DNA of 64,000 nucleotides from Verrucomicrobiota bacterium (GCA_038205745.1 JBBRBM010000003.1:3879-67878), one strand, 5' to 3'; numbered from the stretch's first letter, positions 117 through 61,997 are shown. Translations and numbers: made by a program. The notes: a model not told the origin generated them from the letters alone.

Positions 117-1010
117 TCAGTGGGAATACGGCGGTGGGGAACTGGGACCGTCCTGAATGGAAGTCTGTGACATCAGCCAGTAGAAATCCCATCTTTCGCC
201 CTCGGGAATAGGCAACGGCAACTCTGCGGCATCTGGGCGTGCCGGCTGCCGCGTGAGCTTGTTCCTCCAGCGATGCCACTCGGCGCGACCATCAACGTAA
301 GCCATGTTCGCTCCGCCGTTGTGAAATGACGCCGGCAAGTCGATCCACTGCTTCTGGCTGTAACGATTCAGAAAGTAACCGTCATTGATGCTGTCGGGAT
401 GTTCCTCGATCAGTGCGAAGATTCGGGAGGGTTGCGGGACATCACCGAGCCGAATGAACTGGCGATACCCTGGGTTGTTCGTGTTTTGGCCCGAGCTCAT
501 GAACTCGCCCGCGTTCCCGACCATGGCGTTCATCGAGATGCTGCGCACGCGCTCGCGCCAGCCCGCCACTTTCTGAGTTTCGCTGAGAATGGTGTCCGAG
601 GGGCATTTGAACAACTTCGCCACACCGCCAACGTACGGTCCCAGCCCGCCAACGCTGAGCAGCCAACTGTTGGTATTGTCCGAATCCAGTTCCCAACTCA
701 TCACGTCGTTGGCCCAGTTGAGGAACTCGCCCTTTGCCACGGTTGCCTGGATGCCTTGTGTGCCCATGTTCTGCGGGAGCTCATCTTCATGTTCGCCCGC
801 GTAAAGATGTATTGCCAGGCCGAGCTGCCGCATGTTGTTCAGGCAGAAGGCGCCTTTGCTTTTCTCACGAGCTCCCTTGAGGGCAGGAATCAAAAGCGAT
901 GCGAGGATCGCCATGATGGCAATCACCACCAGCAGCTCGATCAGTGTGAACGCTTGGACGCGTCCCCGCCGTTCGAACTCGCGCCTTCGCACATGGATTT
1001 GGATGCGCAC
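117..1010 (-). CDS. Prepilin-type N-terminal cleavage/methylation domain protein with H-X9-DG motif (DUF1559-like type II pseudopilin family)
   Basis: The N-terminus (...[28 protein letters not shown]) is the classic N-methylation signature plus a hydrophobic helix. The C-terminal region has [12 protein letters not shown], an exact H-X9-DG. This family is expanded in Planctomycetes and Verrucomicrobia. Confidence 0.85.
288..323 (-). other. H-X9-DG motif ([12 protein letters not shown])
   Basis: The reverse complement of 288-323 reads cac aac ggc gga gcg aac atg gct tac gtt gat ggt. Confidence 0.9.
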
Positions 1011-1355: not shown

Positions 1356-1628
1356 ATGTCGCAAGCCATGATGGATCCCGAGCAGGTCCGGCGGTTCGCC
1401 GAGGAACTGCAGCGTTTCACGCGCGATCTCCAAAACCGCATGGGCTCCCTGCAGGCGCGCTTTTCGGCGCTGGGCGATTCGTGGCAGGACCAGGAACACC
1501 AGAAGTTCACTGACGAGTTCAAGCAGACCACGAAGGCGTTCAAGAAATTCGTCGAACTGTCGGACCAACACGTCCCGTTCCTTTTGCGCAAAGCGCAGCG
1601 CATCGAGGAGTATTTGAACCAGCGATGA
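1356..1628 (+). CDS. Small (90 aa) all-helical WXG100-like protein, with W-Q-D in place of W-x-G
   Basis: ATG 1356 is preceded by AAGGA (1346-1350). The size is ~100 aa. The central turn LGDSWQDQEHQKFTDEFKQ has the W-x-[G/D]-x5-F-x3-F spacing seen in Esx/WXG100 proteins. Heptad-like helical sequence lies on both sides. The gene sits directly upstream of a triple-FtsK ATPase. The in-frame upstream extension to 1146 is R/S-rich and lacks an RBS. Confidence 0.6.
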   Translation: MSQAMMDPEQVRRFAEELQRFTRDLQNRMGSLQARFSALGDSWQDQEHQKFTDEFKQTTKAFKKFVELSDQHVPFLLRKAQRIEEYLNQR

Positions 1629-1721: not shown

Positions 1722-2294
1722 ATGGCCGACAGCGCACACGTCACTTCCGTCGATGCCATCGAGTCCTTCCGCGTGGGTCTAATCAATTACCTGAGCAAAG
1801 CCCGACCCGCTCTCGACGATGCGATCGATGATGTCGCCCGCACGCGTGACTGGCTTCAGCACAATCAACTGCGGCGTTGGGAGGGCGAATTGAAACGCCG
1901 GCGACGTGTAGTCGAGGAAGCGGAACAAGCCGTGTTCAGCGCCAGAATTTCCAGTCTCCGTGAAGTGTCGACGGCGGAGACTGCCGCCGTAACACGTGCG
2001 CGCCGGGCGATGATGGAGGCGGAAGAAAAATTGCACCTCGTGAAGAAATGGCTGCGGGTTTTCGGCAATCACGTCGATCCGCTGGTGAAGCAACTCGAAC
2101 AAGTGCAAACGATGTTTGGCAACACGATGCCCCGAGGCATCGCGCATCTGGCGGCATTGGTGAAGACGCTCGATGCTTACGCGAACGTCAGCACGGCGTC
2201 GTTGGCGGGACCGACACCACAAGCAACGCCAGAAGTATCGCCTTCAGATGCTGCGCCTGTGCAAACTGATCCCCTGAAAGCCGAACCCACATGA
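1722..2294 (+). CDS. 190-aa charged coiled-coil protein with a W-E-G turn after the first ~50 helical residues (possible extended WXG100/LXG-like protein)
   Basis: ATG 1722. The sequence ...TRDWLQHNQLRRWEGELKRRRRVVEEAEQ... has a W53-E54-G55 motif. Long helical segments are followed by a P/A/T-rich tail. Its stop overlaps the next start (ATGA at 2291-2294). Confidence 0.55.
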   Translation: MADSAHVTSVDAIESFRVGLINYLSKARPALDDAIDDVARTRDWLQHNQLRRWEGELKRRRRVVEEAEQAVFSARISSLREVSTAETAAVTRARRAMMEAEEKLHLVKKWLRVFGNHVDPLVKQLEQVQTMFGNTMPRGIAHLAALVKTLDAYANVSTASLAGPTPQATPEVSPSDAAPVQTDPLKAEPT

Positions 2295-2515
2295 TCTCCC
2301 AATCCCACATCAGTGCGAACGGACGGCTCGTCGCGGCGTTGACCAAAGACCTGATGCGCAACTGGGCCGGCACCAAGGAGCAATGGCAGGACGCCAAGGC
2401 CTATGAGTTCGAGCAACGATTCCTTTCCGAGCTGATGAACAGCGTCGATCGTGCGGTGCCGGTCTTTGAAGATTTGGAAAAGGTGATTAGAAAGATCAGG
2501 AGCGACTGTGAGTAA
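2291..2515 (+). CDS. Small (74 aa) WXG100-like helical protein, paralogous to the 90-aa protein
   Basis: It contains a literal W-A-G (residues 25-27) followed by EQWQDAKAYEFEQRF. It shares W-Q-D..F..(E/Q)(F/R)F...VP(F/V)F with the product of 1356-1628. It is translationally coupled on both sides (ATGA at 2291; an 8-nt overlap with GTG 2508). Confidence 0.6.
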   Translation: MISQSHISANGRLVAALTKDLMRNWAGTKEQWQDAKAYEFEQRFLSELMNSVDRAVPVFEDLEKVIRKIRSDCE

Positions 2516-5500
2516 GCACCTGACCGTCACACAAACGATCGAGCTGCTGGAGAGCCTCAAATCGACGGTGCGCGAATTCGCCGCCGCCGAAGAGAAGATC
2601 AATCGAGAGTTCAAGAGCAAGAGCGATGCGGCACAGAAGCGTTTCGAAGAAGAAGTCCGCACTCACGACTCCCAGGTAAACGATCAATTGCGACGCTCGA
2701 ATGCGGAGTTCGATCACGCGCAGGCGGGGGTGCAATCGCGTTACGAGCAACGCAAGTTGAAGATCGCGAAAGCCTACAAGAACGCCAAACGCCAGCGGCT
2801 CCAGCGTGTCGACGACGAAGAAGGGCGCATCAAATACCAAAGCCAGAAAGGGATGCTCGACACCAAGCGTTGGCGCACTGAGTCGCTGACGCGGAACGAT
2901 GTGCGGCTCGCCGACTTCAACCAGCGGCTCGCAGAAGCCCAGGCCACGTTGACCACGCTTCAGGACGAGGCGACAAAAGCATTTCGTGGCCACGGAAATT
3001 TCCGGAAAGAATTGGAGAAGCCCACAGGTGTTCCGAACATTGAGCGGACATCGGCCGAGGAACAGTTCTTCGAAAGGTTAAACGCATTGCTCACGCGCAC
3101 GCGCGAAAACCTCGACAAGTTCCGGATGCTTGCGGCGCCCCGGTTGTTCGGCGCCATCCCCATCGGTTTCGGCAAGAGCGAAGCGGCTCCGCTGGCAAAG
3201 ACGATCGCGCACGACCTCGAAACCAGCCGTCGCCTCTACGCGGCCGCTTCAGAAACGGCTCAGGCGCATCACGCTTCAGAGGTCGAACGCATCGAATCCG
3301 AGTCCAAACTACGGCTCGACGATTTTCAGTCGCACTGGACGGTGGGCATCGAGGGAGCCGAACGCGCAAGAGGGATCTGGCCCGGATACGTTGACGAGAA
3401 AGAACAGCGCGTGACGGTCAGACTGGAACAACTGCACATCGCGCGGCTGAACAGGTTGGAGTCCGAGCACAACGAGCGTGTATCAAAAACCCGCGGCGAG
3501 TCTGACGCGAAGCGATCCTCGATCGTCGCTACACACGAAACCCGCGCTGCGAAGTTTCGTTCCGACTACGAGGCTCAATGGCAAAAGCTGGAACTTGATT
3601 GGCGCTTGAGCGTCGAACCGCTTCTGCGCGCGATCGAAGCGGCGAACACCGCGGCGGCGGAATTCAAGCCGTGGACTCCGGAGTTATGGAGCGATTGGTT
3701 GACGCCGACCGAGTTTGGAAACGCCGCCGGCTTCGCGCGGCTCGAAGTGGAGCTGAAACGTTTCGCCGAGGCTGTTCCACACGACACGCGGCTTCAGCGT
3801 GCCCCCGGCATCTTGCCGGGTCCGGTCTTGGAATTCACAACAAGGCGCTCGTCTGAGAGCAACGCCCGGCAAGATGCCGGGGGCACGCTGTTTTCACTGC
3901 CGCTTGTGCTCACGTATCCGCAGCAAGGTTCCGTCTTGTTCGAGACCACGCGCACCGGAAACGAGCCGGTGTTCGAGGCGTTGAACAACATCATCTTCCG
4001 ACTGCTTTCCACGACACCCGCGGGCAAGTTGAGTTTCACAATCATCGACCCGGTGAAGCTTGGGCAGAACTTCTCCACTGTGATGCACCTCGCGGATTAC
4101 GAAGACAACGTCATCAACGGCCGCATCTGGACGCAGCCGAACCAAATTGACGAACGGCTCGGCGAGTTGAACGAGCACATGGAGAAAGTCATCCAGATGT
4201 ATCTCCGCAACGAGTACGAGACGATCGCGGAATACAATCGGCAGGCCGGAAACATCGCGGAGAAATATCACTTCGTCGTCGTGGCGGATTTCCCGGCGAA
4301 CTTCACCGACAGCGCGGTGAAGCGGTTGCTCCGCATTGCCGCGAGCGGTGCGCGCTGCGGTGTTTACACACTGATCCATTGGGATCATCGGCACACCGCG
4401 CCGGCGGATTTCTTTCCTGAGGAACTCCGCAAGAGCAGCGTGTGCATCAACATGGCGGGCGAACAGTTCGTGCTCGCTCATCCGTTCGTGCCAGGCGTGA
4501 AGGTGTTGCTGGATGCGCCGCCCGCGCCGGATTTCGCAACGGAATTTCTACACAAGGTCGGCGAGGCGGGTCGCGGATCGAATCGCGTTGAAGTGCCGTT
4601 CGCCCAGATCGCGCCGGCGCCGGACGACATCTGGTCGCTTGAAACGACGGAAGAACTTCGCGTTCCAATCGGACGCTCTGGCGCGACGAAGCTGCAGTAT
4701 CTCGCGATCGGAAAAGGCACCCGGCAACACGCGCTCGTCGCGGGCAAAACCGGCTCCGGCAAATCGACACTGTTCCACGTCATCATCACGAACCTCGCGC
4801 TCTGGTGCAGTCCCGAGCAGGTGGAGTTTTACCTCGTGGATTTCAAGAAGGGCGTTGAGTTCAAAAGCTATGCAACGAATCGATTGCCACACGCGAAAGT
4901 GGTGGCGATCGAGAGCGATCGCGAGTTCGGGCTCAGTGTGTTGCAGCGGCTGGACGAAGAATTGAAGCGCCGCGGCGAACTGTTCCGCAAACTCGGCGTG
5001 CAGGACGTTGCCGGATACAAGCGCGTCGGCGCTTCGCTGCAGACGGCCATTGAACCGATGCCCCGCACCTTGCTGCTCATCGATGAGTTCCAGGAATTCT
5101 TCGTGGAGGACGATCGCATCGCGCAGGCGGCGAATCTGTTGCTTGATCGCATTGTGCGCCAGGGCCGCGCGTTTGGCATTCACTGCATCCTCGGCTCGCA
5201 GACGCTCGGTGGCGCCTACACGCTTGCGCGCACCACGATTGGGCAAATGGTCATCCGCGTCGCGCTCCAGTGCAACGAAGCCGACGCTTACCTGATCATG
5301 GACGAGAACAACGCTGCGCCGCGTTTGCTCACGCGTCCTGGCGAAGGCATCTACAACGACATGGCTGGCGCGAGCGAAGGCAACAGCCCGTTCCAGGCCG
5401 TCTGGATCAGCGATGAAGAACGCGACGCGCGACTCACTCACGTGCGGCGCGTCGCAGATGAGCGTGGTGGAAAATTTTCCGTGCCGATTGTTTTCGAAGG

Positions 5501-6344
5501 CAACGCCCCCGCCGATGTGCGGGACAATCCATTGCTGCAACAATTGCTCGCCAACGGAGCGCAGAACTCCAGCTCTGTGCGCATCTGGCTCGGCGCCCCG
5601 AACTCGATCAAAGGTCCGACCGAAGCCGTGTTCCAAAATCGCAGCGGCAACAATTTGCTCGTGGTCGGTCAACGCGAAGAAGCAGTGCTGGCAATGTTGA
5701 GCGCGTCGCTGATTGCACTCGCCGCGCAGTTCGATAAGGGCGCGGCGAAGTTCATCCTGTTCGAGAGCACCGCGCCAGGTTCCGCAGAGCGCGCGTTCAT
5801 TGAACGCGTGGCGCGGGCCATTCCACACGGCGTCACACTGGGCAAACCCGGCGATCTCGTCGCCGTGCTCAACGGGCTCGCAGAAGATTTGCAGGACCGA
5901 ACGAACAGCGAACACGCGACGACACCGACGTTCCTGTTTCTTCACGGCATGCAGAATCTGAAGAAGCTAAAGCAGGACGATGAGTTCGCTTTCAGCAGCA
6001 GCGACGACGGCCCGAGTCCATCCGCACAATTGCAAAAATTGATTACCGAAGGCCCCGCGCATGGAATTCATGTGATCGCCACGCTCGACACTTTCAACAA
6101 CGTGACTCGTTTCCTCGGACGCAAGCTGCTGAGCGAATTCGAAATGCGCGTTCTCTTCCAAATGAGCGCGAACGATTCGTCGAGCCTCTGTGATGATCCA
6201 AAGGCCAGCACGCTCGGACTTCATCGCGCGCTTTTTTACAACGAGCAGGAGGGTTACCTGGAAACATTCCGACCTTATGCGCTGCCCAACCTGGAATGGC
6301 TTGAGCACGTGGCGGAGCAGTTATCGCGTCGCGTGCAGGGCTAA
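2508..6344 (+). CDS. FtsK/SpoIIIE-family ATPase with three tandem P-loop domains (EssC/EccC-like), a long N-terminal coiled coil and no recognisable TM segment
   Basis: GTG start at 2508. The middle domain is canonical: HALVAGKTGSGKSTLFHVIITNL (Walker A), RTLLLIDEFQEFF (Walker B), GRAFGIHCILGSQ. A degenerate upstream domain (approx. nt 3889-4400) has LSFTIIDPVKLG, YHFVVVADFP and GARCGVYTLI, with TRTGNEPV at the Walker A position. A degenerate downstream domain (approx. 5570-6344) has NNLLVVGQREEAVL, PTFLFLHGMQ and GPAHGIHVIATLD. The first ~450 aa are K/E/R/Q-rich coiled coil. Confidence 0.85.
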   Translation: MSKHLTVTQTIELLESLKSTVREFAAAEEKINREFKSKSDAAQKRFEEEVRTHDSQVNDQLRRSNAEFDHAQAGVQSRYEQRKLKIAKAYKNAKRQRLQRVDDEEGRIKYQSQKGMLDTKRWRTESLTRNDVRLADFNQRLAEAQATLTTLQDEATKAFRGHGNFRKELEKPTGVPNIERTSAEEQFFERLNALLTRTRENLDKFRMLAAPRLFGAIPIGFGKSEAAPLAKTIAHDLETSRRLYAAASETAQAHHASEVERIESESKLRLDDFQSHWTVGIEGAERARGIWPGYVDEKEQRVTVRLEQLHIARLNRLESEHNERVSKTRGESDAKRSSIVATHETRAAKFRSDYEAQWQKLELDWRLSVEPLLRAIEAANTAAAEFKPWTPELWSDWLTPTEFGNAAGFARLEVELKRFAEAVPHDTRLQRAPGILPGPVLEFTTRRSSESNARQDAGGTLFSLPLVLTYPQQGSVLFETTRTGNEPVFEALNNIIFRLLSTTPAGKLSFTIIDPVKLGQNFSTVMHLADYEDNVINGRIWTQPNQIDERLGELNEHMEKVIQMYLRNEYETIAEYNRQAGNIAEKYHFVVVADFPANFTDSAVKRLLRIAASGARCGVYTLIHWDHRHTAPADFFPEELRKSSVCINMAGEQFVLAHPFVPGVKVLLDAPPAPDFATEFLHKVGEAGRGSNRVEVPFAQIAPAPDDIWSLETTEELRVPIGRSGATKLQYLAIGKGTRQHALVAGKTGSGKSTLFHVIITNLALWCSPEQVEFYLVDFKKGVEFKSYATNRLPHAKVVAIESDREFGLSVLQRLDEELKRRGELFRKLGVQDVAGYKRVGASLQTAIEPMPRTLLLIDEFQEFFVEDDRIAQAANLLLDRIVRQGRAFGIHCILGSQTLGGAYTLARTTIGQMVIRVALQCNEADAYLIMDENNAAPRLLTRPGEGIYNDMAGASEGNSPFQAVWISDEERDARLTHVRRVADERGGKFSVPIVFEGNAPADVRDNPLLQQLLANGAQNSSSVRIWLGAPNSIKGPTEAVFQNRSGNNLLVVGQREEAVLAMLSASLIALAAQFDKGAAKFILFESTAPGSAERAFIERVARAIPHGVTLGKPGDLVAVLNGLAEDLQDRTNSEHATTPTFLFLHGMQNLKKLKQDDEFAFSSSDDGPSPSAQLQKLITEGPAHGIHVIATLDTFNNVTRFLGRKLLSEFEMRVLFQMSANDSSSLCDDPKASTLGLHRALFYNEQEGYLETFRPYALPNLEWLEHVAEQLSRRVQG
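4743..5090 (+). other. The only intact nucleotide-binding site of the ATPase: Walker A GKTGSGKST (4743-4769) and Walker B LLLIDEF (5070-5090)
   Basis: Read codon by codon and in frame with the 2508 start. Confidence 0.9.
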
Positions 6345-12715: not shown

Positions 12716-13141
12716 ATGGATTCCAAGACGGAGCCGCCTGTGCCGCCGCAAATTCCCGTACGACTGGAGCGCTACGAACACAGCGTGCCGCCAAAGATAG
12801 AACGCCGCTATTGGCTTCACCCGAAGAGCGGCATCCTCATCCTGGCGGTGGACTGGCTTTTCTTCGGACCCGAGCTTTTCACCGCGGGAACGACGGCGAT
12901 CGTCACATCGCCCCTCGCGTTCCTGATCACCACGGCGGGCGTGTTTTGGATTCAGCGCAGGAAGAACGGAGACTCTTTCAATGCCGCGCTGTTGAAGGCG
13001 TTGCTCGGCGGTATCGTGGCGGGAATTCCCACCAGCATCAGCGGAACGATCCTCGGCACTGCGGTGCTCGCGCTCTCGGGGCTATCGGGATGGAATCAGC
13101 GGCGCGGTGATAAAATATCACCGAACACGCGCTCAAGTTGA
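12716..13141 (+). CDS. Small integral membrane protein (141 aa), function unknown
   Basis: It has three or more hydrophobic helices (GILILAVDWLFFGPELF, AIVTSPLAFLITTAGVFWI, LLGGIVAGIPTSISGTILGTAVLAL). The 3' end overlaps coaE convergently. Confidence 0.5.
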   Translation: MDSKTEPPVPPQIPVRLERYEHSVPPKIERRYWLHPKSGILILAVDWLFFGPELFTAGTTAIVTSPLAFLITTAGVFWIQRRKNGDSFNAALLKALLGGIVAGIPTSISGTILGTAVLALSGLSGWNQRRGDKISPNTRSS

Positions 13142-13704
13142 CGCTCGTGCATCTCAAGCACGCCCTCGGTCCACACCACGGGCGTCGAGGCGGCGATCTT
13201 CCTCTCGATCGGCCATTGCGCGTCGATTCGCTGCTCGATCTGCTCCGCTGACATCCCACGCGCCAACAATCGTTCGCGCTGCGATGCCGCAGAACACGCG
13301 GTGCAAACTACGAAATCAAACGCCGCTTGCGCGCTCGTTTCAAAAAGGAGCGGGATCACGACCACGGCTGCGCGCTCTCCTGCCCTGCGCCATGTTTCCA
13401 CCTGCTGCAACCATCGTGTGCGAATGCGCGGATGCAGAATCGCTTCGAGGATTTGCCGTTTCGTTGAATCGCCAAAAATAATTTCGCCGAGGAGGGCGCG
13501 GCGCAGCTTCCCTTCCGCGTCGATCAGTTCACCGCCAAACGTCGCGGCGATTTCGTCAAGCGCTGGCTGGCCAGGCTCCACGACTTCACGTGCAACCATG
13601 TCCGTGTCGATCACTGGCACTCCACGTCGCGCCAGGATCGACGCCGACGTCGACTTGCCCATGCCAATGCCGCCTGTGAGACCAAAGAGTTTCATTCGTC
13701 GCAT
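13096..13704 (-). CDS. coaE: Dephospho-CoA kinase
   Basis: MRRMKLFGLTGGIGMGKST (P-loop), VPVIDTDMVAREVVEPGQPAL and AVVVIPLLFE. ATG 13704 was chosen as the start. The longer ORF-track start at 13824 would overlap the giant gene. Confidence 0.85.
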   Translation of the reverse strand: MRRMKLFGLTGGIGMGKSTSASILARRGVPVIDTDMVAREVVEPGQPALDEIAATFGGELIDAEGKLRRALLGEIIFGDSTKRQILEAILHPRIRTRWLQQVETWRRAGERAAVVVIPLLFETSAQAAFDFVVCTACSAASQRERLLARGMSAEQIEQRIDAQWPIERKIAASTPVVWTEGVLEMHERQLERVFGDILSPRR

Positions 13705-13786
13705 CCATTCACGGTCGACACAGAAAAGCGCAGGCGAACTTTCGTCCGCCTGCGCTGTGAAACTGCTGCGAGCATCGCTTCTGCGG

Positions 13787-16700
13787 CTACGGCGTGCGCC
13801 TGAGCCGGAAGAACGACGCGCCACCCGAGATCGGCACGGTGGCCGAGCTGGTGCCGCTGCTGGTGGTGACGGTGGCCGACGACGTTGACCATGAACCGGA
13901 CGAGATCGACGCCCTCGTTTCGAGAACGATGTTGGTCTGCGTCTGCCAGCTCAACACGACATTGTTGCCCGCGCGCGCTGCGTAGAGTGTGGGCACGCCG
14001 GAAGCGGGCGGCGCATTCGGATCAAATACCGTGGTCTGAATCGACGCCACATTATTGACGGGGTTCAGGTCCTGTTCACCCGCGCCTGCGGTTGCGTTGA
14101 ATGTAATCTGGGCCGGGCTTCCCGGAGCCCGCACGGTGATCGTGCCGATGGTGCCCGCACCAGCCGGCAGGCTCCCGAAATTCAGCGTAACAGTGCTGCC
14201 GGATCGGGTGCCTGCGGGAGTCAGGTTCACGAACGTTGCATCTGGCGCCAATGTATTCGTCACGAACACGGCATTTGCGTTCGCAGGTCCGACGTTCGTC
14301 ACCGCGATGGTGTAAGTCAGCAGTCCATTTGTCGCCACAGGGTCCGGACTGTCCGTCACCTTGAGTGAAATATCCGCGCCGGGGATCACCGGTTCGCCAG
14401 ACTGGATATTGAGGCTCCAACCACCCGCGATGCTTCCACCGAATACTGGAGCGTCGTCATAGATGTAGAGTGACCACACACCATTGGGGTTCATGTTGTT
14501 GAACGTGGACAGACTCGTGCCGTAAGGCGGCAGCGGTCCGGGTGGCGCAAACGGATCGTTCGTCACCGCGTAGTTGCCGCAACGATACGTTCCATTGCTG
14601 ATGACACCGAAATCCGGGATCGCAAACGCCGCCGCGTCATCGAACGTAATGGTGAGATTGTGCATCGCGTTCGCGGTGCCGGAGCCGCCGTTGCCGGCGT
14701 CTGACATCAACATCACGTTCCTGCCATCCGGCGCCACGAGCACGATGTCGAGGTCATCCGGATAATCATGCGAGACGTTGTACAACGTGACCGTCAACCG
14801 GGTTAGCGGGCCGCCGAATCCAGAAACCGTCAACGTGGACGGATACGGCGAGGCCACACCCGAGTCAGGAAGCGTGATGACGTCCGAGTTCGCAAACGGA
14901 ATCATCGCGCGTCCAATCGTGTAGCTGAACGTCACGTCTCCCAGGAATACACCCAGGTTGTTCGTGAGCAGCAACGTGACCGTGAGGCGCGTGCCGTTGC
15001 TGCCGGACGCGAGGAATGTAAACGGACGCGACACCGAGTCACCACCCGCCACGAGCTCGCCGTAGCCTCGCTGCTGGAGATTTGTCGCCGCCTGGGCATT
15101 CGTCGGCGATACACCGGTGCCATTCCCGTAAACCAGCGTCGCCGTGATCGTGTCGTTGATCGTCCCGTTGTTGCGCAGTGCCAACTGGAGCGTGACGATT
15201 TCGCCCGGCTCGATGATGCTGTTCGTCGTCAGGTTTTCGGCGACCAGTGCCGAGCCCGCGGCCACAATCACGCCTGCATCATTGTCGAAGATCCGCAGGA
15301 GCGCCGAGCCCGGGCTGCCGACGCGAGCACCGCCGCCTGCGTTGCTCAAGGCGAGCGTCAAACTTTCCAGGCCTTCCACGATACTGTCGTCGTTGATCGG
15401 GATGATGATTGGCTTCTGTGTCTCACCCTGGGAGAAGACCACCGTGCCCGATGAGCCGAAGTAATCCTGACCGTTGATCGCTGATCCGCCAGTCACGCTC
15501 CAGGCCACGCTGACGGTGCCGTTGGAGCCGCCGGAGCGCACGAGGTTGATGACCGCATTACCGTCGCCTTCCACCACGTTGTAAGTCGCCGAGGCGAACG
15601 CAATCGAGCCGGCATTATCCACAATATTGAGCGTGGCCGTGCCGGTCGTCAGGTCAATCGTCGCGCCGCCGGTCGGCAGGTCGAGGAACAGGCCCACAGT
15701 TTCAATGCCCTCCGTTACGCCGTCATCCGCAATCGGAATGAGCAAGGTCCGGGAGGTGGCGTCACCCGAACCCCAGCTTAACGTTGTGGTGATCGCCACG
15801 TAATCGACCCCCGCCGTCGCTGTTCCATTCTGCGTGCGGAAGCGCGCACTGACTGCATTGGACGAATTACCAGTGCGAATCACCGTGATCACCGCATTGG
15901 TCCCCTTCTCGTTGACGACATAGATCGGGCTCGAGAAACCAATCCCAGTGTCATCCTCAATGATATTGACGATGGCCGTCGGCTGGCCACCAAGGCCGGT
16001 GCCGGGGCTGGGATTCGCCAGGGTCAGATTGAAGAACTCGTCTCCTTCCACGATCGTGTCGTTCTGGAGCGTCACACCAAAGACGCGGGATGTCTCGCCC
16101 GCGGCGAACGCGAGCCGTCCTGTGATCGTGAAGTAATCGTTCGTGAATAACAGGGACGTCGCGGTTCCGTCCGACGTGGCGAAGTCCACCGACACAGCCG
16201 GATTCGTCGAGCCTGTGCGTATGACGGTGATCGTCACGTTCGGTGCGGATTCCAGGACGGAATAGACAGCCGAGCTGAAGCTGAACCCGATATCGTCGTC
16301 CACGATGATCAACTGCGCAGAAGGCAACGGTTGCAGCGTCACGCCGCTCGATGGATTCGACAGCGTCAAGTTCACTATCTCGTCCCCTTCCGGAATCGTG
16401 TCGTCATTGATGGAGACGAGGAACGTCTTGTTCGTTTCGCCCGCCGCGAAGTTGAGCACCAGCGAGGTATTGAAATAATCCTGGCCGGCCGTTGCCGTGC
16501 CCGGGCTCGTGTTCACGCCGACAGAGAACGCCACACTCGGATCACCGCGGCGGTCAACGCTGATCACGGCGCTCGTGAACGCCTCGGTCACGAAGAACTG
16601 CGGCTGCGAGAACGTCACGCTGATCTCGTCGTCGAGGATGTTGAGCATCGCCGTTTGATTGAGGATATCCGGGCCATTCGGGAAGCCACCGGCAGGCTGG

Positions 16701-54335: not shown

Positions 54336-55229
54336 TCACAACAAACTTCCCTGGGTGGATTGCGTCGCGTCGAGCTGCGCGAGCAATGTTTTGAATCCCC
54401 ACTTCGCATAGAGCGGGCGCAATCGCATCGCGTCGGGAGCGCGCACGGCGAGTTTCTCGAGCTGAAAGTCACACGGCAGATCTGCGTGCAGGCGGATCAA
54501 TTTCTGATTGCGGCGCACGATCGACTCGGCGTCCTGAAGGTTTGCGCGAATGCGCTCGGACTTCACCTCACCAAGCCGCGAGTACATCGCGTCAATCCTG
54601 CCGAACTGCTTCAGCAGATCAGTCGCCGTCTTCGGGCCGACGCCCGGCACGCCTTTGATGTTGTCCACGGAGTCGCCGATTAGACTAAGCCAGTCGACCA
54701 CTTGCTCCGGGTCAAGGCCGGTTTTCGCGCGCACCTGATCGATCCTCCAAATGGTTTCCGATTTGTCGTTCGGATTAAGCAGCCCCACATGGTCGGAAAC
54801 GAGCTGGAGAAAATCCTTGTCCGCGCTGGCGATCACCACTTCCACGCCGCCTCGAACGGCGCAATCGGCCTGGCTCGCGATCCAATCATCCGCCTCGACG
54901 CCTTCGTTCACGAAAGACGGGATGGTGGATGCTGCTAGAAAACTCTCGATCTCTGGCAGTTGTTTTTCCAGATCGCCGGGCATGGGCGGGCGTTGGATTT
55001 TATATTCGGGCAATGCCGCCATGCGCTTCTCGCAGAGCCCGCCGTCCCAGACGACACAGTGGTGCGTCGGCTGGAGCGTGGTTTCCATTTTCAAAAGCAT
55101 CTTGATGAAGCCGTAGATCGCGTTGGTCGGCGCGCCATCCGGGCCATTCAAACTCTGGATCGCATGGAAGGCCCGATACGCGTAAGCGTGGCCATCAACG
55201 ATCAGCAGACGTGGCGAAGCAGCTTGCAT
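54336..55229 (-). CDS. Stand-alone 5'-3' exonuclease (Pol I N-terminal / FEN-like domain)
   Basis: LLIVDGHAYAYRAFHA, VVIASADKDFLQLV and the H3TH motif DNIKGVPGVGPKTATDLLKQFG. ATG 55229 was chosen as the start. Confidence 0.8.
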   Translation of the reverse strand: MQAASPRLLIVDGHAYAYRAFHAIQSLNGPDGAPTNAIYGFIKMLLKMETTLQPTHHCVVWDGGLCEKRMAALPEYKIQRPPMPGDLEKQLPEIESFLAASTIPSFVNEGVEADDWIASQADCAVRGGVEVVIASADKDFLQLVSDHVGLLNPNDKSETIWRIDQVRAKTGLDPEQVVDWLSLIGDSVDNIKGVPGVGPKTATDLLKQFGRIDAMYSRLGEVKSERIRANLQDAESIVRRNQKLIRLHADLPCDFQLEKLAVRAPDAMRLRPLYAKWGFKTLLAQLDATQSTQGSLL

Positions 55230-55282
55230 CCGAAGAACGGTTGCGCGACTTGCCCTGCGGCGATGGCACAACCTCGTTCAGG

Positions 55283-58150
55283 TTACGGCGTAATCACCCG
55301 CGGCAACTGCAACGGAGCTGAATGCTGCGCCGCGAACGGCATCTCCTCGTCCGAGTGCATCCGATTGCCGGCCGGATCGATCAACGTCGGCGTGACGAAA
55401 ATAACGAGATTTTTCTTGTCGCTCCGGTTCGACTCGCTGCGAAAGAAACGTCCGAGAAACGGCAGGTCGCCGAGCACTGGAACTTTGTCCTTCTGCTTCT
55501 GGACGTTTTCCGAAATCAACCCGCCGAGGACGACCGTCTGGCCGTCCCAGACCATCACCGTCGTCGCGACCGTGCGCAGGCGGAACTTGGGCAGAGGCGT
55601 TTGCTGCACGAGCGCCGTCGTCGGCGGTCCACTGCCGCCCACGGATTGCGCTTGCGCGACAAAAGCGCTGGCATCGTCGTAACCAAGAAACTCTTTCAAC
55701 GACGGCAACAACGTCATCGTGATCGTGTACCCGTCTGCATTCACGTACGGCACCACGTCGAGAACTGGACCGAGTTCAAAGGGTTCGGTGATCGGCTGAA
55801 CGGTTGTGCCGATGCCACCGCCCGTGGTCACCGCTCCCGCGCCCCCCAACCCGCCGCCGGCTGCCGTCTGATTCAGGTCCAGATCAGTGACGATGTACTT
55901 CACGTCCACCACTTTGATCTGCGCCTGCCGTCCGCTCATGGTCGTAACTTCAGGACAGCTCAACAAGTCGGTGCCGCCGCGCTGTTCGAGCGCGCGCACC
56001 ACGAACTTGAATTGCGGATCGGTCAGAATGCCGGTGACCGATGCGAGCGCCGGAGCACTGTTGCGCAAACCACCGGTGAGCAAACTGTCCGTGCCGGATG
56101 CCGGAGTGGCGAACGGTCCCGGCACACCCGGTGCGGATCCCGGTCCGGGAAACCAACCGCTCGGATTCGCGGGTGTCGGCGCGCCTTGATAACTCGGAGC
56201 AGTGCCCGCCTGCGCACCGATCGCTCCGTGGTTCAGCAACGTGTTGCCCAGATACCAATCGAAACCGAGGGCTCGATTGTCATCCTGCGTCACTTCCATG
56301 AACTTCGCGCGGATGGTCAATTGCGGCGGCGCCATGTTGAGCATCTGCACCGCTTTCTCGATCGTGTCGAGATCCTGCAACGTCGCCCGCACCATGAGCA
56401 CGCCGAGACGGTCGTTGAAGAAGACCGCCTTGCCGACATCGTCGAGATTCACGCCCGCCGTGCTGAAGAACAACTTCACCTGCGGGATGACAATCGCTGA
56501 AGGAGTGACGTCGGTAAGAAATTCGATGCCGCCGGAACCTTGGGGCAAGGCTCCACCACCAGCACCACCCGCCTGCGCGCCTGCGCGGCCAGGTTGTGCG
56601 GCACGACCGCCGCCAGCCTGCTGGCCTCCTCGGCCTCCGCCGCCGCCGGGTGCGATGGAAACGGTGGCGTAGGATGCGCCGCCGCCGCTACTGTTACCGT
56701 TCTGATTATTGCCGCCTTGATTGTTGCCGCCGCCACCACGATTACCCCCGCCGCCGCCACCACGATTACCGCCGCCGCCACCACCCCGTCCACCACCACC
56801 ACCACCACCACCGCCGCCACCACCGCCGTTTTGCGCTGCGCCAAAGTCCAATGATGTCACGTTGGCGAGACCTTGCCAGAAGGTGTTCGGATCGACTTTG
56901 AAGAAGCGCGTGTGCAGTGGAACCGCTTCCACCGGCTTCGGCGAAATCACAACGCCCCAGTCTTCGACCGAGTATTTGATTTTCTTGTCCGCGACCATCG
57001 TGACGATGTTGAGCGCTTCCTCGAGCGAGATGTCGCGCAACGGGGTGCTGATCGTAATCGTGACGCCACCGACAAGATCGAGCGTCTCCCCGCCGGGCGC
57101 AGGCAATTCCGCGCCGGGAATTGGCCCTCCGCCGGGGAAACCGGGTCCGCCGGGAAATCCCGTGGTGGGTGGCGCCGTGGCGGTATCCGCATTCGGGCTG
57201 ATCAGGAAATTCACGCCCTTGGTCGCGGGATTCGGATCAAGATCTCGGCGGCGCGCCTCGGCATTCAACTGCGAAATCACCTCGCCAAGTGGAAGCTTGT
57301 CCACCATGAACTCGTTCAGGCGAATCCGCTGCAGCTTGTCGTAGACTTTCTGCCGTCCGGAGCCGGTATACACGATGTTGGTCCGCGCATAAATGTTCGG
57401 CACCGGCAGCGTTTCACGCTTCACGTTGTCCGCCCATTGGCGCTCGACTTCGAGCATCATCTGCTTGGAGTTCACGTCGCGCAGACGCAGTTCTTCCGAG
57501 TAACGGCGGGCATTGACGAGATCGAGATAGTACGCGGCTGCCTTATTGTTCGGATCGAGCTTGATCGAGGCGCGCAAAGCCTTTTCGGATTCGTTCAAAC
57601 GTCCGGTTTCGTAAAACAGCTTTCCGTCCTGCACGAGCTTGGCCACTTCCACGCGGTTGGTCTCGGTCAACTCAATGATCTTGAGCGTGCTGTCGTGCGG
57701 CATCTTGTCGTACGTCTCGGCGATCATGCGGTTGTTCCTGGTCCGCATGTCGAGCGCGAGCTTGTTCTTGGGATCTTCGGTCAGCACGCGGTCGAGGTGG
57801 ACCTTGGCTCCGGCAAAATTACCGCTGCGCATCTCATTATCCGCGATGGCCAGCGTGGTTCGCCCGAGACCTGCGACGGCTTCCGTGCGTTGCGGTTCGA
57901 TGACGCCGCCGATCTCGCGCAGCGACTGCAACGCTTTGTTGTACATCTGGGACGCGGGCACGATGTCCCGCTGGACTTCGAGCGTGCGTCCCTGGTCGAT
58001 GAGGTTGCGAGCCTCCATCAACTTGTTTTCTCGGCGCACCGCCGCATCGATCGCAGCTTGCGTTTCAGGAGGGACGTCTTGGGCGTGAAGCACTGGCGTC
58101 GCAGCCAGGGCGACGGCCAGACACAGCGAAGGAAAGACAGCATGATTCAT
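55283..58150 (-). CDS. Secretin (PilQ/GspD family) with an N-terminal TPR-like region and a ~100-aa Gly/Arg/Asn-rich insert
   Basis: The signal peptide is MNHAVFPSLCLAVALAATPVLHA. The secretin core includes LTIRAKFMEVTQDDNRALGFDW and KDKVPVLGDLPFLGRFFRSESNRSDKKNLVIFVTPTLI. By position it matches Amuc_1098 in the Akkermansia cluster. Confidence 0.85.
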   Translation of the reverse strand: MNHAVFPSLCLAVALAATPVLHAQDVPPETQAAIDAAVRRENKLMEARNLIDQGRTLEVQRDIVPASQMYNKALQSLREIGGVIEPQRTEAVAGLGRTTLAIADNEMRSGNFAGAKVHLDRVLTEDPKNKLALDMRTRNNRMIAETYDKMPHDSTLKIIELTETNRVEVAKLVQDGKLFYETGRLNESEKALRASIKLDPNNKAAAYYLDLVNARRYSEELRLRDVNSKQMMLEVERQWADNVKRETLPVPNIYARTNIVYTGSGRQKVYDKLQRIRLNEFMVDKLPLGEVISQLNAEARRRDLDPNPATKGVNFLISPNADTATAPPTTGFPGGPGFPGGGPIPGAELPAPGGETLDLVGGVTITISTPLRDISLEEALNIVTMVADKKIKYSVEDWGVVISPKPVEAVPLHTRFFKVDPNTFWQGLANVTSLDFGAAQNGGGGGGGGGGGGGRGGGGGGNRGGGGGGNRGGGGNNQGGNNQNGNSSGGGASYATVSIAPGGGGGRGGQQAGGGRAAQPGRAGAQAGGAGGGALPQGSGGIEFLTDVTPSAIVIPQVKLFFSTAGVNLDDVGKAVFFNDRLGVLMVRATLQDLDTIEKAVQMLNMAPPQLTIRAKFMEVTQDDNRALGFDWYLGNTLLNHGAIGAQAGTAPSYQGAPTPANPSGWFPGPGSAPGVPGPFATPASGTDSLLTGGLRNSAPALASVTGILTDPQFKFVVRALEQRGGTDLLSCPEVTTMSGRQAQIKVVDVKYIVTDLDLNQTAAGGGLGGAGAVTTGGGIGTTVQPITEPFELGPVLDVVPYVNADGYTITMTLLPSLKEFLGYDDASAFVAQAQSVGGSGPPTTALVQQTPLPKFRLRTVATTVMVWDGQTVVLGGLISENVQKQKDKVPVLGDLPFLGRFFRSESNRSDKKNLVIFVTPTLIDPAGNRMHSDEEMPFAAQHSAPLQLPRVITP
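56727..56784 (-). repeat. In-frame 24-nt tandem repeat (~2.5 copies) encoding RGGGGGGN units
   Basis: ccgccgccaccacgattacc occurs at 56727-56746 and again at 56751-56770. A partial third copy starts at 56772. Confidence 0.85.
56791..56811 (-). repeat. (CAC)7 / (GTG)7 trinucleotide microsatellite within a poly-Gly coding run
   Basis: caccaccaccaccaccaccac read on the + strand. Confidence 0.85.
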
Positions 58151-58190
58151 CGTGTGCGTAACTCAGAATATGGGAAGACAAGGCAAAGCA

Positions 58191-58988
58191 TTATTTACGA
58201 ATCGTTGCACGTCGATTGTTTGAACTTGCGGACACTACAACCTCGTTTTCCGTGATAGCAACGATATTGTATTCTTCACCGCCCACAGTCAGCTTGTCGC
58301 CGACGCGCAGGTCTTTGAACGAGAGCTTGGGCTCGGGCGGATACGTCAAATCCGCCTTGTAGCCTTCCACTTCGGTGTAGGGCTTTTCCAACGTGACACT
58401 CGTTTTTTTCCCGTCCGCCAGTTCAATGACGGCTTCCGGTTGCTCAGGCGTGCCGCGAATGTCGCGCAATGTAAAAAGCTTCGAGGTGTGCTGCGTGTTG
58501 GTGGTGACGTATTGCGAAATCTTTATTCGCGCGCGGGCGTTCGTGGCCGCCTCCTGAACCGCGCTCATGTACAATCCACCCGGTGTCACACGGTCCACGG
58601 CGACAATCGTCCTCAATGGCGCGGTGTTCACCAATTTGAGAGCAGCACCGCCGACTTCCGTTCCTTTTTCGATTTTGAGCAGGGAGCCATCGGGCTTCTT
58701 CTGCCACGTCACGGGATTGACCAAGTTGTGCGGCAAACCGAAATCGAGCGCTGGCGGGTTCTTCGCTTTTTCAAGGGCGCCGGAAAGCTGCGCGAGATCG
58801 ACGGAAGGAACTTCCTTGCCCTTCTTCTTCTGCACGTTGCGATCGTACTCGCGAATCTTGTCTTCCTCGGCCTGGCGCACACCATACAGGTAAACGACCG
58901 CGCCGAGGAAACCGATCAACGCGAGCGCGACAATCACCTTCTCGTAGTGTTTCGCAAACAGGCCGCCAATTTTTCGCAGGAAGTTCAT
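58191..58988 (-). CDS. Single-pass membrane protein in the PilP position (Amuc_1099-position homologue), function unknown
   Basis: The N-terminal TM is VIVALALIGFLGAVVYLY. Its start overlaps the upstream stop (ATGA at 58985-58988). It lies between the PilO-position gene and the secretin. Confidence 0.6.
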   Translation of the reverse strand: MNFLRKIGGLFAKHYEKVIVALALIGFLGAVVYLYGVRQAEEDKIREYDRNVQKKKGKEVPSVDLAQLSGALEKAKNPPALDFGLPHNLVNPVTWQKKPDGSLLKIEKGTEVGGAALKLVNTAPLRTIVAVDRVTPGGLYMSAVQEAATNARARIKISQYVTTNTQHTSKLFTLRDIRGTPEQPEAVIELADGKKTSVTLEKPYTEVEGYKADLTYPPEPKLSFKDLRVGDKLTVGGEEYNIVAITENEVVVSASSNNRRATIRK

Positions 58989-59896
58989 CGCGCTGGTTTG
59001 ATCACTTCCACTTTGAGCACCACGCGCAGCAGGCGCTCCCTGAGAATCGTTTCAAGCCCGGACGGAGCAGCCGCGGCGGGGCGGGATCCGCCTCGACCAC
59101 CTCGACCAGGCGGCGCATTGCCAGGAACCGGCGCTGCTCCTGGTTGCTGTCGGGTGGGCAGCGGTTCAGCAGGTTCAACCACCACCGACCGCACGACGTA
59201 AGCCTCCGGCATGCGCGAGATGCCTTCGATCACCGCTGCCAGTTCCGGCGAGAAGGAATGAAAAACGATTTCGTAGGGCCACATCACCATGCCCGCGTCG
59301 GCATTGAAGTGCGGAGCCTCAGGCAGGTAATCCCCCGCAGAATTCGCACCCGGGATTTCATCCGTCACGCGCGCACGGCGAATCGATTCCAGCCGGTTCA
59401 CCTTGCCCTTGAACAGGAGCGACGACAGTTGCTTCACCTCCGCGAGCCTTTCGCTCAAGGGTTGCAGGCTCCCGGGTGGAAACGACGCGGAAGGCCATTG
59501 GCTCGCGAAGCTGAAATGGTAGTTGGTCTCGACGCGAATGCCCGCTGCGCTCGCTTCCTTCACCAGCTCCGCCACCGTGTTGTGCAGAAGCGACGCAAAC
59601 GATTGATTGTTCAACGGAGTTGTCGGCAAGAGGGATGGGGGGAAGAATTTCTGCGCTTCCGCCGTGAAGTCGGCCACACGCTTGATCTCCCGCTGCGCGA
59701 CCGCAATGTTGCTCGGACTCGGATAATAAGGTGCTCCAATAAGCCGATCCAACTCAGCCTTCAAGCCGCCGATCTCATTATCGACGCCTTTGTTCTTATC
59801 CATCGCGCGCATGAGATACCAGCCGCCAAAACCGATTAAGCCAATCGCTACGGCGGCACTGATCACCACGACGAGATGTCTTTTGAACCAGGCCAT
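58985..59896 (-). CDS. Amuc_1100-family pilus-associated protein (PilO position)
   Basis: An N-terminal TM (VVVISAAVAIGLIGFGGWYL) is followed by a coiled coil. The blocks WPYEIVFHSFSPELAAVIEGISRMPEAYVVRSVVVEP and RERLLRVVLKVEVIKP are collinear with my recollection of A. muciniphila Amuc_1100 (PLEIAFQGDRESVLKAMNAITGMQDYLFTVNSIRI...; KEQVFVQVSLNLVHF). Synteny is the same (secretin, hypothetical, Amuc_1100, PilM-like). Confidence 0.6.
   Translation of the reverse strand: MAWFKRHLVVVISAAVAIGLIGFGGWYLMRAMDKNKGVDNEIGGLKAELDRLIGAPYYPSPSNIAVAQREIKRVADFTAEAQKFFPPSLLPTTPLNNQSFASLLHNTVAELVKEASAAGIRVETNYHFSFASQWPSASFPPGSLQPLSERLAEVKQLSSLLFKGKVNRLESIRRARVTDEIPGANSAGDYLPEAPHFNADAGMVMWPYEIVFHSFSPELAAVIEGISRMPEAYVVRSVVVEPAEPLPTRQQPGAAPVPGNAPPGRGGRGGSRPAAAAPSGLETILRERLLRVVLKVEVIKPAR
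59057..59164 (-). other. Pro/Gly/Arg-rich low-complexity segment (PLPTRQQPGAAPVPGNAPPGRGGRGGSRPAAAAPSG)
   Basis: Read from the translation. Coordinates were derived by counting back from the stop. Confidence 0.8.
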
Positions 59897-59897
59897 C

Positions 59898-61781: not shown

Positions 61782-61997
61782 CGCACAATATGCGACCACA
61801 TCGCTGCGCACTGCGCCAGACGATGCGGAGTCCCGCTGCGTACCCTATTCGCAACAATACGGTCAAACAGAAAACTTATTCCGGTGATACTCGCGCAATT
61901 TATGGCGCAAGTTTTCTGGCAAGACGCGCGATGCGTTTTGAAGTTACACGGCGGAGCGGGAAAACAAAAATTTCCGCCGGTCAGGAAACGACAGCAT

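Follow-up and report, generated by a model that had tools for sequence, protein, structure and literature searches.

A four-gene locus of Verrucomicrobiota encoding a WXG100 protein and an EccC-like ATPase without the transmembrane hairpin typical of its family

The canonical ATPases of type VII secretion systems (T7SS) comprise two N-terminal transmembrane (TM) helices followed by four NTPase-like domains termed DUF, D1, D2 and D3 (PMC11217815), and the TM helices of EccC have been described as the T7SS pore (PMC11217815). In a 2024 survey of the types T7SSa-j, which covered Gram-positive bacteria only, four NTPase domains and an N-terminal TM region were present in every ATPase (PMC11217815). 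The literature that was searched treats type VII secretion as a feature of Actinomycetota and Bacillota, and no paper on a verrucomicrobial system was found by full-text searches. Verrucomicrobiota constitute a Gram-negative phylum with an outer membrane, and a survey by Sutcliffe from 2011 reportedly noted genes for WXG100 and FtsK/SpoIIIE proteins in Verrucomicrobia and other Gram-negative phyla. Here, a stretch of 64,000 nucleotides from a Verrucomicrobiota bacterium (GCA_038205745.1, JBBRBM010000003.1:3879-67878), referred to as the window, is analyzed with respect to an FtsK/SpoIIIE-family ATPase encoded close to one of its ends. A preliminary description, made from the sequence alone, had presented this protein as a soluble relative of EccC and EssC. 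As outlined in the following, the product of the open reading frame (ORF) is probably the motor ATPase of a compact module of four genes, which is kin to T7SS and does without their other components. It belongs to a family in which an internal TM hairpin is the norm, and has lost this hairpin.

Architecture of the ATPase and its kinship to EccC

The gene and the three domains of its product were delineated as follows.

2508..6344, plus strand: FtsK/SpoIIIE-family (EccC-like) ATPase of 1278 amino acids (aa) with GTG start, based on Pfam, NCBIfam, PDB and Foldseek matches
3870..4607, plus strand: domain A, degenerate FtsK-like, aa ~455-700, TRTGNEPV and VVVADF occupying the P-loop and Walker B positions
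4608..5477, plus strand: domain B, intact ATPase, aa ~701-990, with Walker A G746-T754 at nt 4743-4769 and Walker B L855-F861 at nt 5070-5090
5478..6341, plus strand: domain C, degenerate duplicate of domain B, aa ~991-1278, based on hhalign

The identical 1278-aa product is recorded in NCBI, on a contig of 72.5 kb. Since its N-terminus can be aligned from residue 2 onwards with ~60 homologues, the start is correct and no upstream TM-bearing extension has been missed. Relatives are numerous: at least 581 loci of the ATPase family were found in a scan using one genome per species, 80 of which (L001-L080) were retrieved for locus comparison. A word-indexed search yielded ~60 full-length relatives with identities of 46-78%, while an exhaustive search recovered over 150 cluster representatives at the 50% identity level (E < 1e-214), nearly all of them ~1290-1340 aa in length. 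Taking both searches together, protein length hardly varies in the family (~1290-1320 aa), in keeping with three domains. Essentially all of the retrieved loci stem from metagenome-assembled genomes (MAGs) of Verrucomicrobiota, including Limisphaerales, Pedosphaera, Chthoniobacterales and Verrucomicrobiales.

The motifs listed for the three domains in the preliminary description were all recovered exactly, namely TRTGNEPV (481-488) and VVVADF (590-595) in domain A, GKTGSGKST (746-754) and LLLIDEF (855-861) in domain B, as well as VGQREEAV (1053-1060) and FLFLHG (1142-1147) in domain C. The single intact nucleotide site that had been assigned to the middle domain was likewise found, with the Walker A and Walker B sequences being complete in domain B only. 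This domain is recognized by Pfam family PF01580 (FtsK_SpoIIIE) at aa 735-899 with 117.4 bits against a cut-off of 24 (E 8e-34), and its motif residues are invariant or nearly so in the family. A candidate arginine finger is R887 in the motif GRAFGIH, which aligns with GRSLGVH of EccC D1 and presumably corresponds to the arginine-finger motif of FtsK; the equivalent position is occupied by a proline in domain C and by an invariant arginine (R616) in domain A.

The preliminary description would have been overturned by TM helices or by a first and third domain lacking FtsK-like folds; neither was the case, and the observation stands. According to the AlphaFold2 (AF2) models, which were calculated as monomers for aa 1-470 (mean predicted local distance difference test score, pLDDT, of 87; model m22f16ab96d5d) and for aa 440-1278 (pLDDT 78), the ATPase region is composed of three alpha/beta domains. 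Domain A alone reaches 24.3 bits with PF01580 and is thus borderline with regard to the cut-off of 24, and its alpha/beta fold exhibits strand, loop and helix where the P-loop belongs. In hhalign comparisons it matched domain C in register (E 0.014) and did not match domain B significantly, and its profile gave zero matches against PDB sequences. Domain C was aligned to domain B with a probability of 94.7% (E 5.7e-8, 212 columns), the Walker A and Walker B positions being taken by VGQREEAV and FLFLHG, respectively; taken alone, it gave no Pfam match, and its profile search against PDB sequences was also empty. Together with the Foldseek results, all three domains can thus be classified as FtsK-like, domain A by virtue of the borderline Pfam match and domain C by hhalign. 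The degenerate-active-degenerate pattern of domains A, B and C is kept across the whole family; hence, the degenerate sites of domains A and C represent functional adaptations instead of decay. As a separate observation, family-invariant residues are packed most densely at window positions 5241-5399 (aa 912-964, GQMVIRVALQCNEADAYLIMDENNAAPRLLTRPGEGIYND), where AF2 confidence is lowest (pLDDT ~28-31). This segment may contact other subunits or the substrate, in which case a model of the monomer would be unable to place it.

The proposed kinship to EccC and EssC was borne out by sequence and fold comparisons, and it is already mirrored in public annotation. Among PDB sequences, the best matches were EccC of Thermomonospora curvata (4nh0, 121 bits), EccC5 (108 bits) and YukB (9qks, 77 bits), with FtsK at ~42 bits. 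The best fold match of the three-domain AF2 model was again 4nh0 (885 columns, E 1.4e-29), which represents the cytoplasmic part of T. curvata EccC with its three ATPases, followed by EccC D2-D3, EssC D2-D3 and FtsK. The EssC matches comprised D2-D3 (4lya, 5fv0) and D3 (6tv1). All NCBIfam equivalog models were matched far below their cut-offs, however: EccCa (TIGR03924) gave 125.7 bits against 509.15 and EccCb (TIGR03925) 104 against 346.55, with only the D1/D2-like part being aligned, and EssC (TIGR03928) gave 85.4 against 778.4; FtsK reached 32 bits.

In the preliminary description, the sole intact site in a central domain had been regarded as a departure from the logic of EccC, in which the first full ATPase domain is the catalytic one. 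This part has to be abandoned, as domain B aligns best with just that domain, i.e. EccC D1 (EccC5 463-674 with 75.9 bits compared to 29.9 for D2; 4nh0 276-464 with 58.3 bits; TIGR03924 positions 411-627). Judged by position only, the order of domains corresponds to DUF-like, D1-like and distal degenerate, which is one domain fewer than in the canonical ATPases.

The transmembrane hairpin and its loss

All TM calls are based on Kyte-Doolittle (KD) hydropathy in a 19-residue window, for which 1.6 is the usual threshold. The highest mean of the window ATPase is 1.44 and thus below threshold; it is located at aa 1058-1076 in the helix following the degenerate P-loop of domain C. As a positive control, the same script detected two segments with KD values of 1.6-3.15 at ~aa 212-270 in nearly all homologues. 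The claim that the 1278 aa contain no TM segment therefore holds. In ~95% of the family, a two-helix TM hairpin is found internally at ~aa 212-270, between two helices of ~155 residues. Its two hydrophobic segments are connected by a loop of ~10 residues and flanked by positively charged motifs, PK(L/I)FR on the N-terminal and G(R/K)SK on the C-terminal side, and this combination of hydrophobic pair, short loop and positive flanks marks a TM hairpin whose two ends both lie on the cytoplasmic side. The corresponding region of the window ATPase is made up of the following elements.

2526..2984, plus strand: long helix 1, aa 7-159; AF2 pLDDT ~95, hydrophobic periodicity 3.64 (p ~0.008)
3147..3173, plus strand: deletion junction FGAIPIGFG, aa 214-222; alignments, AF2 low-confidence turn at 217-223
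3183..3659, plus strand: long helix 2, aa 226-384; AF2, Foldseek matches to antiparallel coiled-coil arms

For aa 1-470, AF2 predicts helices at 7-159, 184-207 and 226-384, with low confidence at 217-223. Charged residues (K, R, E, D) account for 33% of the N-terminal region. Hydrophobic periodicity near 3.6 was significant in helix 1 (p ~0.008) and not in helix 2 (p ~0.14), and a strict heptad periodicity of 3.5 residues across the full helix length was not significant. Foldseek searches with the N-terminal model returned MukB elbow, Rad50, chemoreceptor and dynein stalk, that is, generic matches with template modeling scores (TM-scores) of 0.3 or less. Helices 1 and 2 together probably form an antiparallel coiled-coil stalk. 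Of the heptad-like N-terminus of ~450 aa that had initially been described, the long, helical and charged character can hence be retained, whereas the helical part stops near aa 384 and the periodicity is significant for helix 1 only.

Homologues carry ~46 additional residues between F221 and G222 of the window protein. According to the alignment, exactly this hairpin has been removed by a clean in-frame deletion of 46 residues in the window ATPase as well as in P0001 and P0002, two proteins from a JGI metagenome; the window contig is recorded in NCBI. P0001 and P0002 are 78-80% identical to the window ATPase without any frameshift since the deletion, and all family-invariant residues are kept in the window ATPase, which indicates an old deletion in a gene that is still maintained. 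The hairpin is also absent, with other junction sequences, from the ATPase of locus L012 and its relative P0077, from that of L013 and from P0075, all of which are separately placed in the tree of ATPases (a simple neighbor-joining distance tree) or lie outside the window clade by identity. Judging from these alignments and the tree, the hairpin was lost independently at least two or three times in addition to the loss in the window lineage. The TM-less state, which occurs in ~3-5% of family members, is thus derived and recurrent and not the design of the family. The initial view of a soluble coiled-coil version is therefore appropriate for the window protein itself, which is devoid of TM segments, but not for an enzyme class, given that ~95% of the family contain the internal hairpin. 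Each MAG among the 80 retrieved loci gave only one copy of the ATPase, and neither the ATPase nor the small cassette proteins have a paralogue elsewhere in the window, genome coverage being 64 kb for the window organism and single contigs for the other TM-less organisms.

The WXG100 cassette and the remaining genes of the window

The ATPase gene is the last of four genes on one strand, in the order WXG100 (90 aa), p190 (190 aa), p74 (74 aa) and ATPase. The first three are located as follows.

1356..1628, plus strand: WXG100-family protein of 90 aa, first cassette gene; PF06013 with 43.8 bits against a cut-off of 27.3
1722..2294, plus strand: p190, helical, second cassette gene; conserved over ~155 aa, with a variable tail rich in Pro, Ala, Ser and Thr
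2291..2515, plus strand: p74; invariant W25, W32, D34 and F40, conserved DCE C-terminus

The p74 gene overlaps both of its neighbors, namely the end of p190 by 4 nt and the beginning of the ATPase gene by 8 nt, which suggests translational coupling. Of the 80 loci, 72 carry the WXG100 gene upstream of the ATPase (66-84% identity, with a length of 90 aa in almost every case), p190 is positionally conserved in 72 (34-55% identity) and p74 is present in 74 (33-59% identity), with gene order and strand preserved and the exceptions being mostly situated at contig ends. Throughout the family, the turn motif of the WXG100 protein is W-Q-D and not W-x-G. The protein is represented by 3440 clusters at 90% identity, bearing the source names 'WXG100 family type VII secretion target' or YukE, and the 190-aa product of the second gene is recorded in NCBI. 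Both p190 and p74 are hydrophilic, and no significant Pfam or PDB sequence match was obtained for either of them using 32 members each. A relation of p74 to WXG100 proteins, as a short partner of similar type, was considered and rejected, since the hhalign match of its W-R-D to W-Q-D of WXG100 was not significant (P 0.09).

Cassette and ATPase are widespread in Verrucomicrobiota. The full cassette is also kept in the TM-less loci L012 and L013, and the same order is found in the P0001 locus. Some cassette contigs are labelled Methylomirabilota, Bifidobacteriaceae, Klebsiella, Limnocylindrales etc. (e.g. L012, L024, L023, L065); these are probably mis-binned or mislabelled MAG contigs and not real occurrences in the respective taxa. 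In L010, L014 and L044, 1.6-6 kb of unrelated DNA separate the p74 and ATPase genes, while L016, L028 and L054 harbor an ATPase without any cassette upstream; hence, the module can be split. A further peculiarity concerns L013, where the WXG100 and p190 genes are set apart by an unusual spacer of 264 bp (~4030-4283; ~8-160 bp in other loci), which contains an ORF tail starting MTKRAFILLSAVAIFLAGYCLGY with a hydrophobic N-terminus. This ORF could be due to chance, or it could encode a small membrane protein compensating for the loss of the hairpin.

Clustering of ORFs over the 80 loci revealed no further conserved neighbor and no conserved membrane protein accompanying the cassette. The most frequent other neighbors were an NtrC-like regulator (14/80 loci) and a Ser/Thr kinase (9/80). 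A methyltransferase and a glycosyltransferase encoded downstream were tried as candidate parts of the system and dismissed, the former being found in 0/80 loci and the latter in 2/80 at a weak 28% identity. A promoter/terminator scan was uninformative, yielding fewer sites than shuffled sequence.

The remaining window contains the following larger features.

13787-47887, minus strand: giant ORFs, three in succession (4827, 2742 and 3761 aa); many Calx-beta and DUF5122 beta-propeller repeats, in addition to DUF11, PKD and proprotein-convertase P domains
55283-61811, minus strand: pilus- or type II secretion-like cluster; TPR-containing secretin of 955 aa (PF00263), PilM/FtsA-like protein of 637 aa and two ORFs without assignment
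117-1010, minus strand: protein with prepilin-type N-terminal methylation motif and DUF1559

The first giant ORF starts with a Sec-type signal peptide, and the set resembles huge surface or adhesin-type proteins, not T7SS substrates. The pilus- or type II-like cluster has no link to the WXG100 cassette in related loci. Genes of the DUF1559 prepilin type occur in large numbers in Planctomycetota and Verrucomicrobiota, and their presence would agree with the taxonomy assigned to the contig. Ordinary housekeeping genes are present at 54336-55271, 61998-63959 and 13096-13824, all on the minus strand. They encode a 5'-3' exonuclease (PF02739/PF01367), a double ATPase of the ABC-F type and, assigned by eye only from its GGIGMGKST motif, a probable dephospho-CoA kinase.

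Possible function and comparison with known systems

For the motor ATPase of such a T7SS-related module, the following mode of action can be envisaged. The antiparallel stalk would carry the TM hairpin at its far end, which would serve as inner-membrane anchor in typical members, leaving both protein ends and all ATPase domains in the cytoplasm. Hexamers might be formed as in EccC and FtsK, and ATP hydrolysis at the central site would drive the handling of the helical proteins WXG100, p74 and p190, with domain C probably acting as a substrate- or partner-binding module like the distal domains of EccC/EssC. The window variant would possess the same fold, while being soluble or only peripherally attached; either it would reach the membrane through something else, or the selected step would require no membrane insertion. 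Because ~95% of lineages retain the hairpin, membrane attachment usually seems to matter. A selected cytoplasmic activity with a hairpin that serves for localization fits somewhat better than access to the membrane via another partner, because the WXG100 protein is very conserved and no other membrane component is encoded.

Several points weigh against the idea of such a T7SS-like motor. Secretion, hexamerization and ATPase activity are all inferred for this family, and if the ATPase hairpins were the sole pore, a variant without hairpin could not secrete. The pairing of the two helices is derived from low-TM-score Foldseek matches and monomer models, and a stalk of ~20 nm leading from membrane to motor would be unprecedented in EccC or EssC. 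For domain A, no sequence similarity to the DUF domain of EccC was found using NCBIfam and profile searches against PDB, so that this equivalence is positional, and model confidence is very low just where the protein is most conserved (aa 912-964). In addition, the WXG100 protein (66-84% identity) is more conserved than the ATPase (47-63%) across the 80 loci, which is unusual for a secreted substrate.

This last point would be accommodated if the module were a cytoplasmic ATP-driven machine for the assembly, disassembly or unfolding of WXG100/p74/p190 complexes, not engaged in secretion across the membrane and merely localized by its hairpin. The housekeeping-like conservation of WXG100, the lack of other T7SS membrane components, the absence of a periplasmic domain (the hairpin loop being ~10 residues long) and the three or four clean and independent hairpin losses with motor and cassette kept all agree with this explanation, which we nevertheless consider doubtful: the hairpin is retained in ~95% of members and hence selected in most lineages, the nearest relatives of the motor domain are secretion ATPases, and a channel built of the ATPase only is conceivable, considering that the TM helices of EccC have been described as pore (PMC11217815). 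Similarly doubtful is a truly soluble EccC-like enzyme docked by its coiled coil onto a membrane partner which supplies the channel. While the window protein contains no TM segment, its long helical region could make protein contacts and TM-less forms persist together with intact cassettes, an intrinsic hairpin is the norm in the family and no conserved membrane protein is found beside the cassette in the 80 loci. As p190 and p74 are hydrophilic, the small ORF with hydrophobic start in L013 remains the sole hint of compensation.

Damage or decay of the gene in its TM-less form, which would deprive the finding of any functional meaning, would be in line with the rarity of the variant (~3-5% of members). 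It is very unlikely, though, because hairpin-less alleles have diverged by ~20% and originated repeatedly with clean junctions while invariant residues and cassette stayed intact: the ORF is full-length and retains every family-invariant residue, the window ATPase, P0001 and P0002 share 78-80% identity without frameshift, and the upstream cassette is intact with overlapping genes. Finally, an FtsK/SpoIIIE-type DNA translocase or an anti-phage ATPase (SspH-, HerA- or mad8-like), as suggested by the source annotation 'DNA segregation ATPase FtsK/SpoIIIE' and by PADLOC matches to SspH (E 8e-26), mad8 and HerA, is highly improbable in view of PADLOC matches confined to aa ~717-940, far lower scores for FtsK than for EccC (32 vs 126 bits in NCBIfam, 42 vs 121 bits in PDB), the absence of FtsK gamma or any other DNA-binding domain in Pfam searches and the strict WXG100 linkage. 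The PADLOC matches were accordingly rejected as indication of a defence role, as they cover the P-loop domain only.

Returning to the motor of a T7SS-like module, its stalk-hairpin arrangement, its three-domain architecture and the recurrent loss of the hairpin appear to be undescribed. The four-gene module offers a minimal system in which the capacities of an EccC-type motor and its WXG100 protein can be studied in isolation, and the rare TM-less alleles are natural deletion mutants probing the need for membrane insertion. A more far-reaching proposal, which is put forward tentatively and with low confidence, is that of a minimal WXG100-ATPase machine, carried widely by Verrucomicrobiota, with a stalk of ~20 nm and a dispensable tip hairpin that three or four lineages would have lost while selection acted on all the rest. 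Its core function would be the ATP-driven handling of small helical-hairpin proteins in the cytoplasm, as opposed to pore formation, or else the pore would be supplied otherwise. If true, the natural TM-less alleles would set the motor activity of a T7SS-type ATPase apart from its role at the membrane. Should the module be secretory, the crossing of the outer membrane would be a puzzle, as nothing obvious for this step is encoded in the cassette.

With regard to the features by which T7SS ATPases are recognized, linkage to a WXG100 gene is present, while the N-terminal TM pair and the set of four NTPase domains are missing. Moreover, the locus is devoid of EccB, EccD, EccE, MycP, EssA, EssB, EsaA and YukD-like EsaB, based on Pfam searches with p190, p74 and neighboring proteins and on the sequence around the loci. 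Because equivalog scores, N-terminal TM region, number of domains and accessory core components all fail, the protein is best classified, as far as sequence comparison permits, as a T7SS-like variant outside the EccC/EssC equivalogs and outside T7SSa and T7SSb-j.

Compared to EccC of T7SSa (4nh0; M. tuberculosis EccC5, 7np7), a tandem stack of FtsK-like domains and the linkage to WXG100 are shared, and typical members of the verrucomicrobial family also carry a two-helix hairpin. In contrast, EccC comprises four NTPase-like domains and the verrucomicrobial family three, the last of which has no P-loop, and the verrucomicrobial hairpin follows after ~210 cytoplasmic residues between helices of ~155 residues, being absent in the window protein. 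EssC/YukB of T7SSb and TsxC of T7SSc-j resemble the present system in pairing an FtsK-related ATPase with a single small WXG100 protein. Unlike this group, the verrucomicrobial family has no FHA domains, displays a long helix at the N-terminus instead and possesses three domains, not four. FtsK/SpoIIIE and the type IV coupling proteins (TcpA, VirD4/TrwB) share the P-loop motor fold as well as the GRAxGIH and Walker motifs, but these are single motors with N-terminal TM region and DNA-binding modules, without WXG100 partner and with much lower similarity scores. The best fold matches to the N-terminus, predicted as two helices of ~155 residues connected by a turn, are finally antiparallel coiled-coil arms such as those of SMC/MukB, Rad50 and the cytoplasmic domain of chemoreceptors. 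Here, the likeness is one of shape only and not of sequence kinship, and the turn bears a TM hairpin in most members of the verrucomicrobial family instead of a hinge or zinc hook.

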